A stretch of DNA of 64,000 bases from Clostridia bacterium (GCA_017625935.1 JAGALA010000054.1:7655-71654), one strand, 5' to 3'; positions 3,981 to 44,577 are shown, numbered from the stretch's first letter. The notes: generated by a model not told the origin, from the sequence alone. A program made the numbers and translations.

Positions 3981-5375
3981 CTATTTTGTGTATTCAATTT
4001 CGTATTCAACAATTAGGAAACGGTCGTTATCGCCATCATATAGAATAGAAATAAAGTTCTGCGTGCCATCTTTTGACGGTAGCGTGTTTGACGTACCGTC
4101 ATTTATATTGTAAAAAATACAATAATCGTACGTTGTGCCAGCTGATATAGCATGATTTGGCGGAAGCAACCCTTGCATTGATGTAGGAACTCCCTTTAAC
4201 CAGCGTGTGTCATTTTCCAACCCCTCTTCAAAGGTGTCTGCGACGTTTTTGCCGAGATAAACATGCGTTTCTTCAGTTAATACAGTATATACCACGCGTG
4301 AATATTCGGGCAATTCAACTCCTGTTAACTCTTGCGCCTTCAAATAATATGTGTCGTCGTCTGTTTCCGGAAAGAAAAAGCCGAACATTCCGTAAATGCA
4401 AAGGAAAAATGTCATAATTGCGCCTGCAATTATATTTTTGATACCTTTGTGGCCGCTTGCCAACATTACAATACCAAAAATAAATGAAAAAATGGGAATT
4501 ATTGCTACGGGATAGAAAACCCACATATTAGAAAAAGTAGCATGGTTGATTTGGGAAAGAACGGCGACTAAGATGAGAGCAATTACAATTGAGGCAAAGG
4601 AAGCTATAAATAAAACTAAAGAGAGTATCGAAAGCACTGGACTTTTTTTGAGCTTTGAGCTTTTTCTCGGTTTAGTGTCAATAAATGTTTCAATTATTGA
4701 ATTATTTATAAGTATATTGCGCTTAATCACAAAGCGTTGAGAGTCGAAGTAAAAGGAAATAAAATTATTTGACGCTTTAACATTCTCTATAGCACCGTAA
4801 TCAATAAAATACGTTCTTACAAGTGTATCGTTCCTATAAATGTCAACATTCATTGCTTTGTCAAAAAGAGTATAATGATATTCCTTGGTGCTCATATTAT
4901 TGGCAAGATTTTTTATTACACGTTGCGATACTATAAGCGAAGCAATAAACATTGTTGGATATACCAAAAGCGAGATGAGCAAATATATAGCGACATCACT
5001 GCTTCCTTCCCCTGCTACAAAGGTAATGAGAGAATGAAGTGCTCCAAAAATCATAAACGGCATAGGAATATAAAAGCCGCGTTTTATGGCAGGAGAAACC
5101 GCACTTTTTGCTTCCTTTTTGTCAAATGAAAAGGAGTAGCTCTCCTTGGGTACTTCGGATTTTGTTTCTTGGCTTATCTCCTCGCTGTTTAAAAGCTCGT
5201 CGACGGAAACATTAAAAATTTCCTTTAATCTTATTAAATTGTCAACAGTTGGCACGGTTTTATCCATTTCCCAAAGGCTTACGGTTTGACGGCTGATTAG
5301 CAGCTTATTGCCAAGCTCCTCTTGGGAAAGACCTGAGCGCTTTCTGTAAAATTGAATTTTTTCACCTATTGTCAT
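3981..5375 (-). CDS. membrane-anchored XRE-family HTH protein
   Basis: The N-terminal HTH_3 (IGEKIQFYRKRSGLSQEELGNKLLISRQTVSLWE) is followed by several hydrophobic helices and a C-terminal soluble domain of about 110 aa. Confidence 0.8.
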   Translation of the reverse strand: MTIGEKIQFYRKRSGLSQEELGNKLLISRQTVSLWEMDKTVPTVDNLIRLKEIFNVSVDELLNSEEISQETKSEVPKESYSFSFDKKEAKSAVSPAIKRGFYIPMPFMIFGALHSLITFVAGEGSSDVAIYLLISLLVYPTMFIASLIVSQRVIKNLANNMSTKEYHYTLFDKAMNVDIYRNDTLVRTYFIDYGAIENVKASNNFISFYFDSQRFVIKRNILINNSIIETFIDTKPRKSSKLKKSPVLSILSLVLFIASFASIVIALILVAVLSQINHATFSNMWVFYPVAIIPIFSFIFGIVMLASGHKGIKNIIAGAIMTFFLCIYGMFGFFFPETDDDTYYLKAQELTGVELPEYSRVVYTVLTEETHVYLGKNVADTFEEGLENDTRWLKGVPTSMQGLLPPNHAISAGTTYDYCIFYNINDGTSNTLPSKDGTQNFISILYDGDNDRFLIVEYEIEYTK

Positions 5376-26527: not shown

Positions 26528-27667
26528 TTACTCCCAAACAACAACCTCACCGTTAACATAGTGCCAATAATTGCCACTTGTCGTCGGCTCGTTCTCGCTG
26601 TACCAATACACGGGTCTGGAATTATTCCAGTCCGAATCCCAACCACTCGGCGTGCTTGTTGCTTCGCAATAAAATGTTAACGAATTACATTGTAGAAATG
26701 CCAACCAATCTATGCTTTCGACACTAATAGGTATTACAATGCTTGTTAAGCTGGAACAATAATAAAATGCAGAGAATCCTATACTCGTAACACTGTTTGG
26801 TATTACTATGCTTGTCAAGCTTTTGCACCCTTTAAAAGCATCTGTTGATATAATTTTAATGTTGTCAGACAATTCTACATTTGTTAAGTTGTCGCAATAT
26901 CCAAATGCATTATCGCCTATGCTTATAACGCTATTTGGTATTACTATACTTGTTAAGCTTTCACAATGATAAAATGCGGAAGCGCCAATGCTTTTAATAC
27001 TATCTGGTATTGTTATACTTTTCAAGTTTCTGCAATGATAAAATGCGTAATCGCCAATGCTTGTAACACTGTTTGGTATTGTTATACTTGTCAAGCTTGT
27101 ACCGCCCCAAAAAGCAGAGCTTCCTATACTTGTTACAGGTTTATCATTGTAGGTGCTTGGTATAACAACATCGGTGCCTTCGTATGTGTCAAGACTAATT
27201 ACACAATAGGTATTTGTTGTTTCATCAAGAGCATACATAAGATCTTTTCGCGAAACGTATTGACATATGTCACATCTATTGCTATCTGTATATGTATGTG
27301 GAAGCGTTGGGGCAATTTCCTCTTGCTTTACAAGTGTTTCATTGCAAATTGAGCACTTCTTACCCTCTGTCAAACCGGGTTTACAGGTTGGAGCAACTTT
27401 GGGAATGGTTTCCTCTGTGTGTCCCAAGGCTAGAATTACCTCTTGTTCAATTTCAAATTCTCCACAAACCACACATACCTTGGATGCAGTGTAGCCATTT
27501 TCCGTGCAGGTTGGTGCTATCTCTGGAAGAACATTCCATGCATGCTTATGGTCACCTAAGTTGCTATTTGTTTCTGTATTGGTGTTATCTGTGCACGAGG
27601 CGAAAGAGAAGCACATCGCAACACAAAGCGACAATAGAATAATAGATAGTAATAGCTTTTTCTTCAT
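26528..27667 (-). CDS. BspA-type LRR lipoprotein with N-terminal Cys-rich repeats
   Basis: Lipobox FASC in MKKKLLLSIILLSLCVAMCFSFASC. Two H..APTC....G......C..C units, then seven 23-aa LRRs (SLTSIVIPNSVTSIG..AF..C). Confidence 0.85.
   Translation of the reverse strand: MKKKLLLSIILLSLCVAMCFSFASCTDNTNTETNSNLGDHKHAWNVLPEIAPTCTENGYTASKVCVVCGEFEIEQEVILALGHTEETIPKVAPTCKPGLTEGKKCSICNETLVKQEEIAPTLPHTYTDSNRCDICQYVSRKDLMYALDETTNTYCVISLDTYEGTDVVIPSTYNDKPVTSIGSSAFWGGTSLTSITIPNSVTSIGDYAFYHCRNLKSITIPDSIKSIGASAFYHCESLTSIVIPNSVISIGDNAFGYCDNLTNVELSDNIKIISTDAFKGCKSLTSIVIPNSVTSIGFSAFYYCSSLTSIVIPISVESIDWLAFLQCNSLTFYCEATSTPSGWDSDWNNSRPVYWYSENEPTTSGNYWHYVNGEVVVWE
26690..27140. repeat. tandem repeats of about 69 bp encoding the LRR units
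   Basis: Recurrent GTAACACTGTTTGGTATTAC/GTTATGCTTGTCAAGC-like blocks with a 69-bp period. Confidence 0.8.
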
Positions 27668-28438: not shown

Positions 28439-28451
28439 TTAAGCTACATAG

Positions 28452-28478
28452 AAAAGAGTCCTTCGGGGCTCTTTTTTG
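28452..28478 (+). terminator. intrinsic terminator
   Basis: AAGAGTCC-TTCG-GGGCTCTT followed by TTTTT. Confidence 0.8.
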
Positions 28479-28646
28479 TTGCGAAAAGATGCGCAAATGG
28501 CTCCTTTGAGGAGAAAGCTCCCGACGTTGTCGGGCGAGGGAGAATGCAAATTGATAAAAATAATAGAAATATTTTTTGAAAACATTCCAAAATTTCAAAA
28601 AATTACCGACTTAATTAGTGAAGGGACAAAAAGGAGGTAATTTATA

Positions 28647-29417
28647 ATGAAAATAAAAAACGATAAAACAACAAAGATGTTAGTACGTATTATAGTATCT
28701 CTTTTGTTAACTCTTACATTATGCTCCTCATCCTCTTGTGTTAGTGATAATGCTGAGCGAAATTCAGACACAGGTGCGCCAAATTTCAGACTTGCAGGCA
28801 CGAAAGAGTATAACGGCTTTTATCTTGACTCCTATCTATATGAGGATATCATAAACGCCGAGGACACGGTAAGCTTCAAGGTGCAGGTTTTGCCTGTGCA
28901 AGAGACGCCAAGCGGCTTTATTTATAACGGAAAAAGCTACGCGCAATACAAAGAGGAGCATTTGGAAAGCAAAAATCTTGTTGAAAAGCTAAAAAGCTTG
29001 CTAACGGAAGGCGAGGCGCTAAAATACGGCGAATCACTTTACACTACGGGCACACCCGAGGATGAGCTTTGGTCGTATGAAAGATATAACTATAAAATTC
29101 AAAAATATTATGGCGAGCAAATGCTTGATATCTATATAGTAAACGGAGAATTTTTGAAGGAAAAATTAGAAAGCGACCTTGCATATGCTAAGGAAGAAAC
29201 GAACAAGAAAAACAGCTTGGCAAACGAAGCATATCTGGCTGGGGCAAAAAAGCAGCTTGAGGATGCGCTCGCGGTATTTAAGACGGTAGATAAGGATGCC
29301 GTGATAGAGAACGGAGTGATAAATCTTACCGTGACGAAAAGCTCTCTTGTGGGGTTAGGTAATAAATATGATAATTGTTATATCATAAGGTATCCTCTTT
29401 ACGTATCAAACGATTGA
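28647..29417 (+). CDS. secreted (lipoprotein-like) protein, paralogue 1 of the anti-sigma extracytoplasmic domain
   Basis: AAGGAGG RBS and signal peptide MLVRIIVSLLLTLTLCSSSSC. The mature part aligns over about 190 aa with the 29451 and 30975 proteins. Confidence 0.75.
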   Translation: MKIKNDKTTKMLVRIIVSLLLTLTLCSSSSCVSDNAERNSDTGAPNFRLAGTKEYNGFYLDSYLYEDIINAEDTVSFKVQVLPVQETPSGFIYNGKSYAQYKEEHLESKNLVEKLKSLLTEGEALKYGESLYTTGTPEDELWSYERYNYKIQKYYGEQMLDIYIVNGEFLKEKLESDLAYAKEETNKKNSLANEAYLAGAKKQLEDALAVFKTVDKDAVIENGVINLTVTKSSLVGLGNKYDNCYIIRYPLYVSND

Positions 29418-29450
29418 ATTAACTAAGCAGTGATTAAAAGGAGAAATAAT

Positions 29451-30323
29451 ATGAAAAAAGCTATTGTATTCGGATTAACTGTTCTTTTGACAGCTATAGC
29501 GCTCGCGTCCTGCACCTCGATTAAGCACGAACATATCTTTGGTGATTACGTGTCAAACGGTCAGTATCACCATAAACCCTTTATCGAGTGCACGTGGGAC
29601 AGGTGCTTAGTTGACCCTGTGATTTCAAAATGCACGGACGGAAACGGCGACACAATTTGCGACGTTTGCAAGCATCCAATTTATTATGTTCTGCCCGACT
29701 GGTATTCGTCAGAGTGGAGAGAGGGCATTGAGGTCTCCCCTGAGCTGGAAAGCGAACTAAAAAGCGCCAAGGACGATGACGTAATTTATATGTACGCCTT
29801 TTATGACGGTAATCCAAGTGATGATTTTGTTTACCGCGAGCTTACATATCTTGAATGGAAAAATGACCTAAACGAGCAAAGGATGCTTTCAACAAAGCTC
29901 GTTTCATTACTAAAGGACGGCGAATACCTAAAGCACGGCGAAGCACTATATAGAGAGGGCGTTAACGGAGAAAAATGGGCGAAGGAGCTTTACGAAGCAA
30001 CGCGCGAGTATTACGGAGAGGAGCTGCTTTCAAGATACATCGTCGACGGTGAGCTTTTGATAAACGAGATAAACGTGCAAATTGCAAGCTGTGCGGTAGC
30101 AATAGAAAATATACAAGACACCCTTATTGAGCTTGGCGCTCAATACCGAATTTACCTTGCAGAAGCCGAGCTTGAAAAATTCAAGGAAATTGCGCCCGAT
30201 GCCGAAATAAAGCACGAAAGCATTCATTTTTCAATGACAAAGGAAGAGTTTTCAAATCTTGCGCTTGATAGCAAGGAAATGTACCTATTTTGCCTTGACT
30301 CCTCTTATTATCAAAAATACTAA
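29451..30323 (+). CDS. lipoprotein, paralogue 2 of the anti-sigma extracytoplasmic domain (extra Cys-rich N-terminal segment)
   Basis: ATG at 29451 after AAAGGAG. Lipobox LASC. LVSLLKDGEYLKHGEALY...YYGEELLSRYIVDGELL is shared with the paralogues. Confidence 0.75.
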   Translation: MKKAIVFGLTVLLTAIALASCTSIKHEHIFGDYVSNGQYHHKPFIECTWDRCLVDPVISKCTDGNGDTICDVCKHPIYYVLPDWYSSEWREGIEVSPELESELKSAKDDDVIYMYAFYDGNPSDDFVYRELTYLEWKNDLNEQRMLSTKLVSLLKDGEYLKHGEALYREGVNGEKWAKELYEATREYYGEELLSRYIVDGELLINEINVQIASCAVAIENIQDTLIELGAQYRIYLAEAELEKFKEIAPDAEIKHESIHFSMTKEEFSNLALDSKEMYLFCLDSSYYQKY

Positions 30324-30326
30324 TAT

Positions 30327-30355
30327 TTGCATATTGGAAAAGCTTATGGTATAAT
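30327..30355 (+). promoter_or_regulatory. sigmaA promoter, TTGCAT-17-TGgTATAAT
   Basis: -35 at 30327-30332 and -10 at 30350-30355, upstream of the sigma gene. Confidence 0.65.
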
Positions 30356-30387
30356 GAAAATAGAACTATAGGAAGGGAGGGATTTTT

Positions 30388-30978
30388 ATGCAGATAGCTA
30401 TGGAGACGTGCGCGAGCTTAAGCGACGATGAAATTATCGAGCTGTATTTTCAAAGGAGCGAAAGCGCAATTGATGAAACGGACAAAAAATACGGTGAGCT
30501 TGTTTTCAGAATTGCCTACAATATACTAAATGATAAAAGCGATAGCGAGGAGTGTCAAAACGACACCTATCTTGACGTGTGGAAAGCCATTCCGCCGACA
30601 CGTCCACGCGTTTTTGGCGCATTTATCGCAAAAATAGCGCGCAGAATTTCCATTGACTTATATAGGCACAAAGCAAGGAAAAGGAGCGTGCCGAGCGAGC
30701 TTGTTTCATCAATTGACGAGCTTGAATTTTGCTTAACCGACGAAAAAAACGTGCTTGAAAGCATAGAGGTAAAGGAGCTGGCACGCGCGCTGAACACCTT
30801 TTTAAAAACGCTTTCCCAAAAGCAACAGTATATTTTCATCAGCCGCTTTTATTTTTCATACTCGGTTGAGCAAATTGCAAGAGAAATGGGAAGCACGCCA
30901 TCAAGCGTTTATAAAGCGCTCGAAAAAATCAAGCGCGCCCTTGGCGAGTATCTAAAAAAGGAAGGGGTGGACGTATGA
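30388..30978 (+). CDS. sigma-70-family (ECF-like) RNA polymerase sigma factor
   Basis: Region-2-like YGELVFRIAYNIL..SEECQNDTYLDVWKAI. Region-4 HTH YSVEQIAREMGSTPSSVYKALEKIKRAL. 196 aa. Confidence 0.8.
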   Translation: MQIAMETCASLSDDEIIELYFQRSESAIDETDKKYGELVFRIAYNILNDKSDSEECQNDTYLDVWKAIPPTRPRVFGAFIAKIARRISIDLYRHKARKRSVPSELVSSIDELEFCLTDEKNVLESIEVKELARALNTFLKTLSQKQQYIFISRFYFSYSVEQIAREMGSTPSSVYKALEKIKRALGEYLKKEGVDV

Positions 30979-31832
30979 ATGAAAAGCTTTTGGATGCAGT
31001 CGGCTCACTTGATGACGAGCTGCTCGAAAATTACTTCAAGACGAAAGCGGAATTTGATAAAAACAAGACACGTCCCCGCTTATCTTTGCAAAAATACATC
31101 TCCTTAGCTGCTTGCTTTGTTTTGGTTTTTGCAGTTGCTATAACCGCTATAATAATAGAATTTGGCGGTCCACGCGGCGGCAGCATAGGTGACGTTGGGG
31201 CTGACGGTAACGTAACACCCGATACAAGCGTTGACGAGGGGCTTGGAAACGGGCTTTCGGTTTCACCCGAGCTATATGAGGCGATGAAAAAAGCGCAGGA
31301 CGTGGATGTTTTGGCGGTTATTGTCAATTCTCAAATTATCGCGCCAAACGATTTTAACTATAACGGAAAAGCCTTCAGCGAATATAACAGCGCGTATATA
31401 GAGCTTGGCAAGGTGTTAAAAAAGCTGAACGAGCTTTTAGTTGACGGTGAATACTTAAAATACGGCGAAGCACTTTACAAGGATGGTGCGCCCGATGGCA
31501 CAAAATGGACGCGTGAGGTGTACGAAAAGACGGTAGCCTACTACGGTGACTTGTTTGATAAGTACATCAAAAACGGTGAGCTTCTTGAAAATGAGCTTTT
31601 AGGCGAGATAAAAGCAGTGGAAAACGCAAGGGCGGAGCTTGATAGGACCTTTGACGAAATAGCCAGCGCATACGGCTCTATATTTGCCGAGGAAAACCTG
31701 CCGTTTTTTGAAAAAATCAGCGAAAAGGCGGAAGTCAATGATGGAAAAATCCATCTTGAAATCACCAAGGCGGAGCTACAGAAAATCGCATCAAGCGGCG
31801 ACGGTAAATACTATTTTACCTTGGCAGAATAA
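30975..31832 (+). CDS. putative single-pass anti-sigma factor with paralogous extracytoplasmic domain
   Basis: ATGA overlap with the sigma gene. N-terminus MNEKLLDAVGSLDDELLENYF, TM helix ISLAACFVLVFAVAITAIIIEF, then the domain shared with the 28647 and 29451 proteins. Confidence 0.6.
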   Translation: MNEKLLDAVGSLDDELLENYFKTKAEFDKNKTRPRLSLQKYISLAACFVLVFAVAITAIIIEFGGPRGGSIGDVGADGNVTPDTSVDEGLGNGLSVSPELYEAMKKAQDVDVLAVIVNSQIIAPNDFNYNGKAFSEYNSAYIELGKVLKKLNELLVDGEYLKYGEALYKDGAPDGTKWTREVYEKTVAYYGDLFDKYIKNGELLENELLGEIKAVENARAELDRTFDEIASAYGSIFAEENLPFFEKISEKAEVNDGKIHLEITKAELQKIASSGDGKYYFTLAE

Positions 31833-31843
31833 AAAATCATATG

Positions 31844-31873
31844 GAAAGGAGTCCGATTTGGGCTCCTTTCTTT
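31844..31873 (+). terminator. intrinsic terminator
   Basis: GAAAGGAGTCC-loop-GGCTCCTTTC followed by TTTG. Confidence 0.7.
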
Positions 31874-31925
31874 GTGCAATCGCGTTCCGAAAGCCCACCT
31901 AAAAACCCAGCAATGCGCCCATAGG

Positions 31926-43895: not shown

Positions 43896-43969
43896 CGTCA
43901 TTGTGCACAAAAACAGCGCTGTTTTTTACATTTGACAAAAATAATTTTTTCCAAAAAATCAAAAAAATG

Positions 43970-43998
43970 TTGACAATTCCCTATATATATGATAAAAT
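43970..43998 (+). promoter_or_regulatory. S10-operon sigmaA promoter, TTGACA-17-TGaTAAAAT, with A/T-rich UP-like region
   Basis: -35 at 43970-43975 and -10 at 43993-43998. A- and T-runs span 43935-43968 upstream. Confidence 0.75.
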
Positions 43999-44265: not shown

Positions 44266-44577
44266 ATGGCAGTAAATGAAAAGATCAAAGTAAGAATTAA
44301 GGGTTACGACCACAAGCTCGTTGACTCTGCAGCTGAAAAGATCGTTGATGCAGCTAAGAGAAACGGCGCACAGGTATCAGGTCCTATTCCGCTTCCAACC
44401 GAAAAGGAGATTATCACAATTCTCCGTGCGGTTCACAAGTACAAGGACAGCCGTGAGCAGTTCGAACAGCGCACACACAAGAGACTCATTGAAATCGTTA
44501 AGCCATCTAAGAAGGCTCTCGACGCTATCATGACTCTCGAACTTCCTGCAGGCGTTGAGATTGAAGTAAAGCTTTAA
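44266..44577 (+). CDS. rpsJ: 30S ribosomal protein S10
   Basis: [14 protein letters not shown]..., AAGGAGG RBS, first gene of the cluster. Confidence 0.97.

Follow-up and report, generated by a model that had tools for sequence, protein, structure and literature searches.

Free lipoprotein copies of a putative anti-sigma sensor domain beside an ECF sigma factor in Clostridia: candidate outputs of a possible feedback circuit

Pairs made of a sigma factor of extracytoplasmic function (ECF) and its anti-sigma are among the commonest bacterial signalling devices, and for most of them the cue and the output logic are obscure. A cluster of four genes in a gut Clostridia bacterium raises this question in a particular form: what is the use of encoding the outside domain of a putative anti-sigma factor three times, once on the anti-sigma itself and twice on free, lipoprotein-like proteins next to it? 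The cluster spans positions 28647-31832 of a 64,000-nt stretch (GCA_017625935.1 JAGALA010000054.1:7655-71654), called here the window. The listing of open reading frames (ORFs) gives, all on the plus strand, g1 (28647-29417, 256 aa), g2 (29451-30323, 290 aa), the gene of an ECF sigma factor (30388-30978, 196 aa) and g4, the putative anti-sigma (30975-31832, 285 aa), whose start overlaps the sigma stop (ATGA at 30975-30978). An earlier note on this DNA had claimed these four co-directional genes and this overlap; it had also claimed sigma-70 region-2 and region-4 features and a TTGCAT-17-TGgTATAAT promoter for the third gene, a short cytoplasmic N-terminus, one transmembrane (TM) helix and an outside domain for the fourth, a paralogy of that domain with the two upstream proteins over about 190 aa, and a lipobox that is clean (LASC) in the second of these and weak in the first. 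Our analysis agrees with it on all these points, as detailed below.

The three domains align pairwise by BLASTP with 37% identity over 219 aa for g2 and g4 (E = 7e-29), 32% over 190 aa for g1 and g4 (E = 5e-21), and 34% over 152 aa for g1 and g2 (E = 2e-17); on these alignments, their shared ancestry is far beyond chance. The shared domain covers about 194 aa, at residues 56-250 in g1 and 92-285 in g4, and the family profile described below recognizes each copy with E = 2e-76 to 6e-85. Of the 18 positions that are invariant or nearly so in the family, g1 departs from the consensus at one and g2 at two, and the free copies are all intact ORFs.

Both upstream proteins are predicted to be lipoproteins, taking as lipobox a signal peptide ending in [LVI][ASTVI][GAS]C. 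The mechanical ORF of g2 runs from 29430 to 30323 and opens at GTG 29430, but the likelier start is ATG 29451, which is preceded by AAAGGAG and yields MKKAIVF...IALASC, with the canonical LASC. The lipobox of g1 is weak (SSSC, within CSSSSC, at Cys31), and its orthologues have LSSC, MSSC or TVSC at this place. Between its lipobox and its domain, g2 carries in addition an insert of about 60 aa rich in Cys and His (residues ~22-87, window 29514-29711: HEHIFGDY...HHKPFIECTWDRC...CTDGNGDTICDVCKH), which neither g1 nor g4 has, nor the g2-type half of a natural g1-g2 fusion presented below; it may bind a metal. A homology of this insert with the Cys-rich N-terminus of a neighbouring leucine-rich-repeat (LRR) lipoprotein was considered and is not significant (E = 0.37).

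Is the association of free copies with the sigma/anti-sigma pair conserved? The survey of related loci, designated here L001 to L147, shows that it is, with variations that are informative by themselves. The syntenic site is bordered by a PTAC gene on one side and by esterase and DAGK genes on the other. Between these, the window and L005 have g1, g2, sigma and anti-sigma; L006 has g2 alone before the pair; L001, L007 and L141/L142 have g1 alone before the pair; L144 has g1, then a Peptidase_S8 gene, then the pair. In L146/L147 the pair is preceded by a lipoprotein of 455 aa which joins a g1-type and a g2-type domain (P0123, L146:5001-6368), at the same syntenic position. Lastly, in L008 and L145 the free copy lies downstream of the pair. 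The layout noticed in the window is thus conserved among relatives, whereas the earlier note had taken its absence from every relative as a ground for rejecting its reading, and ORFs, lipoboxes and synteny are kept down to 33-43% of anti-sigma identity. The g1-g2 fusion counts as Rosetta-stone-type evidence that g1 and g2 act together.

A neighbour-joining tree of 24 domain copies distinguishes three lineages of free copies, each with a bootstrap of 100: the g1-type, the g2-type and the downstream copies of L008 and L145, the latter grouping with their own anti-sigmas. As these three lineages are separate, free copies arose at least three times independently. Taken with the g1-g2 fusion and the intact ORFs, this points to selection for the arrangement. 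This repeated origin, together with the promoter wiring that follows, is what appears to be new in this locus.

By aligning the g1 upstream regions of three genomes we found a motif, cATTCCAA-N16-CGAC(A/T)TA, with the appearance of an ECF-type promoter. In the window this candidate promoter lies on the plus strand at 28585-28613 (-35 TTCCAA at 28585-28590, an A-rich spacer of 16 nt, -10 CGACTTA at 28607-28613), 34-37 nt upstream of the g1 ATG, and TTCCAA-N16-CGAC has a single exact match in the 64 kb, precisely that one, at 28585-28610. The motif is found once each in L001, L005, L006, L007, L141, L144 and L146, upstream of the free copy and nowhere else in these loci; in L146 it stands at 4938-4963, before the g1-g2 fusion, for a chance expectation of 0.01 matches per locus. 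L008 and L145 have two occurrences each, one ahead of sigma and the other ahead of the free copy, and again none elsewhere. The spacer sequence diverges among the loci while both hexamers and their spacing are kept. Variants with TGAC or TTAC precede sigma in L009 and L010, so that in the four loci having no free copy upstream of sigma (L008, L145, L009 and L010) the motif or a variant precedes the sigma gene.

A conserved promoter ahead of its own gene is a hallmark of ECF autoregulation. Since the motif stands before sigma in L008 and L145 and also before free copies, the simplest reading is that it is the promoter of this sigma clade; its placement across the loci suggests that this sigma factor recognizes it, and the free copies are probably its conserved targets. 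For further members of the regulon we scanned metagenomes with TTCCAA-N8-AAAA-N4-CGACWTA: at least 120 loci matched and, among the matches listed, none had the domain or a related sigma downstream, which is a background result. In the window, a match with one mismatch at 43949 was rejected as a second target, as it belongs to a TTGACA-17-TAAAAT housekeeping promoter. The region around it, 43939-43996, holds this strong promoter and is followed by a long structured leader and the S10 ribosomal-protein operon (rpsJ at 44266).

The sigma factor is, by its domain content, a bona fide ECF (group 4) sigma-70 factor: it has regions 2 and 4 only (Pfam Sigma70_r2, 2.3e-11; Sigma70_r4_2, 4.4e-9; region 3 not matched) and scores 82.7 bits with the ECF model TIGR02937 of NCBIfam, for a cut-off of 42.9; no NCBIfam model of equivalog or subfamily level reached its own cut-off. 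Its gene has a second, housekeeping (sigma-A-type) promoter on the plus strand at 30327-30355, made of TTGCAT (30327-30332), a spacer of 17 nt and TGgTATAAT ending at 30355. This promoter is conserved in L005 and L001 and has equivalents in L006, L007, L141, L144 and L146; in every locus where a free copy is placed between the motif and sigma, the sigma gene has such a promoter of its own. In L007 and L144 a terminator also separates the free copy from sigma.

The limits of the unit can be drawn from RNA folding. An intrinsic-terminator hairpin with a T-run (28448-28479, plus strand, dG -17.8 kcal/mol, z = -4.5) ends the upstream PTAC gene and marks the 5' boundary; it is also kept in L005 and L001. 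A hairpin with a T-rich tail (31838-31876, plus strand, dG -23.1 kcal/mol, z = -4.4) marks the 3' boundary. Folding of the g1-g2 and g2-sigma spacers gave no structure, and terminators are present only at both ends of the cluster. With hairpins flanking the cluster and unstructured spacers inside, the four genes can be one transcription unit with an internal promoter; and as no terminator lies between g2 and sigma in the window, read-through from the candidate ECF promoter should add a positive autoregulation.

In its predicted organization g4 is a single-pass anti-sigma: N-terminus inside, one TM helix and a C-terminal domain predicted outside. In the AlphaFold full-length model (plus strand throughout) the cytoplasmic part is formed by residues 1-36 (30975-31082), with two short helices at 3-29 (pLDDT, the predicted local distance difference test, ~50-60); the TM helix by residues 37-63 (31083-31163), just preceded by K/R-rich residues 27-36; a disordered linker by residues 64-91 (31164-31247); and the sensor domain, modelled with confidence, by residues 92-285 (31248-31829). 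We propose g4 as the putative anti-sigma of the adjoining sigma on the basis of gene order, overlap, topology and context in relatives. Two observations in particular argue for it: of the 18 distinct related loci in which an N-in TM protein carries the domain, 16 have a sigma gene immediately before it, as a rule with an overlap; and the first 24 aa of g4 are nearly unchanged in relatives whose overall identity is 35-76%, a conservation far better than that of the linker.

Two known types were considered for g4 and rejected. The class I anti-sigma domain (zf-HC2/RsrA-like) is a helical bundle of about 80-90 aa, often with HxxxCxxC; the cytoplasmic part of g4 is too short for it (~36 aa), zf-HC2 is not matched and a Cys or His motif is missing. 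As for membership in the sigma-I/RsgI group, the sigma factor has the canonical Sigma70_r4_2, and RsgI_N was not found in g4 by the Pfam scan.

What is then the domain that g1, g2 and g4 share? The earlier note could not place it in any named family, and neither could we: nothing passed the threshold in Pfam or NCBIfam, and a profile search of the PDB sequences gave nothing significant (best E = 0.021, for an anti-CRISPR protein). A weak match of g4 to DUF7834 (PF25202; E = 0.007) was discarded as chance, since this model is hit in one of 124 family members and the scores, 16.6-17.5 bits (E = 0.004-0.007), stay below the gathering threshold of 27. Searched exhaustively with HMMER, 1.84 billion representative proteins (1.84e9) yield a small family: 363 clusters pass E <= 1e-3, and 320 pass E <= 1e-10. 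The members with a named source all come from gut or rumen Clostridia (Eubacteriales, Oscillospiraceae and Lachnospiraceae metagenome-assembled genomes, Ruminococcus flavefaciens 007c) and are all annotated as hypothetical. According to this census, the domain is a Clostridia-restricted and previously unnamed family.

The anti-sigma-like form, in which 20 or more N-terminal cytoplasmic residues precede a TM helix, dominates the topology of the members: it accounts for 190 of the 246 examined (~77%). A signal peptide or lipobox is found in about 27 of these 246, and a dockerin-like motif in 7 (regular-expression screen); Pfam Dockerin_1 was detected in 6 scanned members, 4 above the gathering threshold and 2 just below. 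Some members hold two or three copies of the domain in tandem arrays, and one (P0151) fuses it to LRR_5.

The family motif reads LKYGExLY-x-G-x-P-x-G-x-x-W...Y...YYG...YIxNG. The AlphaFold model of the domain, built on an alignment of 124 sequences, is confident (pLDDT 94.8; pTM, the predicted template-modelling score, 0.81): N- and C-terminal strands come with short helices, and two long helices occupy domain residues 43-70 and 114-155. The most conserved segment of the family, rich in aromatics (LKYGExLY...W...YYG...YIxNGE), is located between these two helices. From the order of the elements, the terminal strands would form one sheet as a base and the conserved segment would lie at the far end of the helical hairpin, whose length can be estimated at ~40-60 Å from the residue counts of the helices. 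Foldseek found no match at E <= 1e-3 for the model of pLDDT 94.8 in PDB and BFVD; its top matches, the coiled-coil hairpins of the Rad50 hook and AcrA, reach a template-modelling score of only ~0.27 and are not relatives. Gly, Pro, Leu/Ile, Lys71 and aromatics (Y72, Y77, W87, Y92, Y106) make up the invariant or near-invariant positions, and residues of catalytic type are not among them, from which we infer a binding or structural module and not an enzyme. A new extracytoplasmic family of ~360 clusters is thus defined, with a confident AlphaFold model that has no solved relative.

Putting these elements together, we propose the following circuit. The ECF sigma would be held at the membrane by g4. 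An extracellular cue acting on the g4 domain would cause the release of sigma, probably because the disordered linker and the TM helix are proteolysed, as in other single-pass anti-sigmas. The released sigma would transcribe from the cATTCCAA-N16-CGACwTA promoter upstream of g1, so that the output would be g1 and g2, lipid-anchored free copies of the sensor domain; read-through past g2 would add sigma and anti-sigma, whose basal level would be given by the separate housekeeping promoter. Finally g1 and g2, at the same membrane surface, would most likely bind the ligand of the sensor and handle or titrate the cue, in such a way that the output would feed back on the input. The sharing of the ligand is proposed because g1 and g2 keep the family signature and because free copies have been repeatedly recruited under the promoter. 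Being under the presumed autoregulatory promoter of sigma, the free copies would be outputs of the pathway, which makes a feedback on the sensor plausible; the proposal of the earlier note, that the paralogues compete with or partner the sensor, is in this respect plausible too. Taken as a whole—four genes forming an envelope-signalling circuit with a shared-ligand feedback—we consider this the explanation that slightly more probably holds than fails. Comparison of genomes is here enough to nominate a promoter, the genes it may serve and a hypothetical feedback whose output is the sensor's own module; such a feedback, if true, would be a general way to build adaptation into one-component transmembrane signalling.

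A stronger form of this proposal is a self-titrating ECF circuit, whose dedicated and conserved output would be membrane-anchored decoys of its own sensor, wired independently at least three times in one lineage of Clostridia. Either by buffering the cue or by binding the sensor, the decoys would set the gain and the adaptation of the pathway; the domain would bring to it a modelled fold without a solved relative, whose helical hairpin ends in a conserved aromatic-rich segment. We regard this stronger form as tentative, and rather doubtful as it stands.

Several of our findings weigh against the shared-ligand circuit or restrict its reach. The N-terminus of g4 has no Pfam match at E <= 1, hence no known anti-sigma family. 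The conserved residues of the domain are mostly Gly, Pro and aromatics, and their role is possibly structural rather than in ligand binding. A free copy is missing within 5 kb of the more distant pairs, those of L002, L009 and L010, and is thus not obligatory; the anti-sigmas of these pairs bear a C-terminal extension instead. The presence of the domain on dockerin-bearing secreted proteins and in tandem arrays indicates roles outside signalling. Conversely, L143 (4844-5777, GCA_045660785.1) has a g1-type free copy at the syntenic site, in the order PTAC, free copy, esterase, DAGK, and the sigma/anti-sigma pair is not there. This copy is anchored by a TM segment and lacks a lipobox, and its upstream region, AAC-N17-CGTC-like (GTAACC then CGTC), is unlike the motif of the cluster and resembles a different ECF-type promoter. 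It follows that a free copy is able to persist, and to be expressed, apart from the pair. Together with the dockerin fusions, L143 suggests for the free module a function in its own right, beyond that of modulating the sensor next to it.

Part of these difficulties applies equally to a first alternative, in which the partner of the free copies would be the sensor itself. The free lipoproteins would bind the g4 domain, e.g. via the long helical hairpin, as co-sensors or protectors, and the induction of g1 and g2 would re-silence the pathway. A precedent for protection is RseB, which shields RseA from the initiating protease. Such a heteromerisation would agree with the hairpin architecture predicted for g1, g2 and g4 alike, with their expected anchoring at the same membrane face and with their co-regulation via the shared motif; the g1-g2 fusion of a relative indicates that the domains tolerate or prefer to be side by side, and proteins having two or three copies in tandem exist. 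But the copy of L143 has no anti-sigma next to it, the dockerin-linked copies act away from any anti-sigma, and the pairs of L002, L009 and L010 function with no free copy nearby. We consider heteromerisation unlikely as the main explanation.

Beside the free copies, three related loci contain orthologues of a secreted subtilase (Pfam Peptidase_S8, 45-60% identity) in one operon with the pair (L144:1416-3278, L145:2605-4518 and L010:6255-8207). In L144 the subtilase gene is behind the free lipoprotein, under TTCCAA-N16-CGAC; in L145 and L010 it directly follows the anti-sigma; it is missing from the window. The enzyme could be a member of the regulon, or a protease that starts the cleavage of the anti-sigma. 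A homology between its N-terminal region and the sensor domain was checked with the domain profile, which gave no match.

With a chance that we rate as low as that of heteromerisation, g1 and g2 might simply be the products of use to the cell, such as proteins of the envelope or binders of a substrate, g4 reusing their module to detect when they are needed, in the manner of BlaR1 with beta-lactamase or of RsgI with cellulosomal modules, without any meaningful feedback. The persistence of the free copy of L143 apart from sigma and anti-sigma is what this would lead one to expect, the dockerin and LRR fusions show that the module is autonomous outside the cell, and the subtilase, an apparent regulon member in L144, L145 and L010, indicates that outputs are not only copies of the sensor. 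However, the great majority of the members examined are anti-sigma-like, so the free forms look derived from the sensor and not the reverse; moreover, any induced protein that shares the ligand and the membrane surface of the sensor would compete somewhat with it, whatever its function, and so this possibility differs from the shared-ligand circuit mainly in emphasis. Last, and very improbably, the paralogues might be coincidental leftovers of tandem duplication, which is a common event, the motif (only background in the metagenome-wide scan, among the matches listed) belonging to another regulator or sigma and the pair controlling unrelated genes elsewhere; but the sigma genes of L008 and L145 are directly preceded by the motif and those of L009 and L010 by variants of it, which is the classic signature of ECF autoregulation, three independent duplications each ended under it, and intact ORFs, lipoboxes and synteny persist at the anti-sigma divergence given above.

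The surroundings of the cluster deserve a few additional remarks. Upstream of the PTAC gene, the window encodes on the minus strand (26528-27667) the divergent BspA-type LRR lipoprotein already mentioned (Pfam LRR_5, 2.5e-91); at the equivalent place in L146 the LRR lipoprotein has 727 aa. With L005, the closest long relative, the DNA identity of the window is ~90% across the region, and falls to 64-69% at 28616-28915 and 31166-31315, i.e. in the 5' part of g1 (signal peptide and first ~90 codons) and in the linker of g4, while it reaches 99% in the 3' third of g1. This uneven identity suggests mosaic or fast-evolving segments. In L002 (146-7326) the distant pair (30% identity, anti-sigma of 441 aa with its C-terminal extension) adjoins a second sigma/anti-sigma-like pair, near MobL and HTH_17 genes; such modules may travel on mobile elements.

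How does the proposed circuit compare with established ones? In BlaR1/MecR1 with BlaZ/PBP2a, the extracellular domain of the sensor is paralogous to an induced effector encoded nearby, so that both recognize one molecule, and the output lowers the signal. The g1-g2-sigma-g4 unit likewise has a sensor domain and an adjacent candidate output that are paralogues. However, the signal passes there by a zinc-protease cleavage of a repressor and here would pass by a sigma/anti-sigma pair, the domain families are unrelated, and the sensor-domain family described here has no conserved residues of catalytic type. In Mycobacterium tuberculosis, the main targets of the SigK-RskA pair are the adjacent mpt70 and mpt83, which encode paralogous exported proteins, one of them a lipoprotein. 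There too an ECF pair stands beside paralogous exported proteins as targets (candidate targets in our case), but Mpt70 and Mpt83 are paralogous to each other and are not known to be so to the sensor domain of RskA.

Exported or lipid-anchored partners which modulate ECF signalling are also known: RseB for RpoE-RseA of Escherichia coli, CnrX in CnrYXH, and the lipoprotein CseA for SigE of Streptomyces. To our knowledge, none of these three is paralogous to the sensor domain of the anti-sigma. The cluster resembles these systems by an extra exported or lipid-anchored protein encoded with the sigma/anti-sigma pair, and differs in that the accessory proteins duplicate the sensor domain of the anti-sigma, their modulatory role being a proposal here. 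The context of CseA and SigE is presented in PMC6767563. In the limited set of full texts that was searched, an anti-sigma with a lipoprotein paralogue of its sensor is not described.

The closest analogy to the g1-g2-sigma-g4 unit is the sigma-I/RsgI system. In Clostridium thermocellum it serves polysaccharide sensing, the sensor modules of the anti-sigmas being homologous to cellulosomal modules (PMC6582324, PMC10328401). Both systems belong to Clostridia, and in each the anti-sigma crosses the membrane once and bears an outside module with homologues on secreted proteins that carry dockerins; in each, too, genes of extracellular proteins are induced by the sigma factor, which for our cluster is proposed from the motif. 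They differ by the sigma factor, a canonical ECF with Sigma70_r4_2 in our case, and by g4, which has no RsgI_N. The sensor is here an unnamed alpha/beta-hairpin domain, and not a known carbohydrate-binding, glycoside hydrolase or PA14 module. Above all, the genes predicted to be induced are stand-alone copies of the sensor module in the same unit. The copies of the domain borne by dockerin proteins would thus extend to canonical ECF sigma factors an RsgI-like principle, by which a module of secreted proteins is copied to serve as a sensor.

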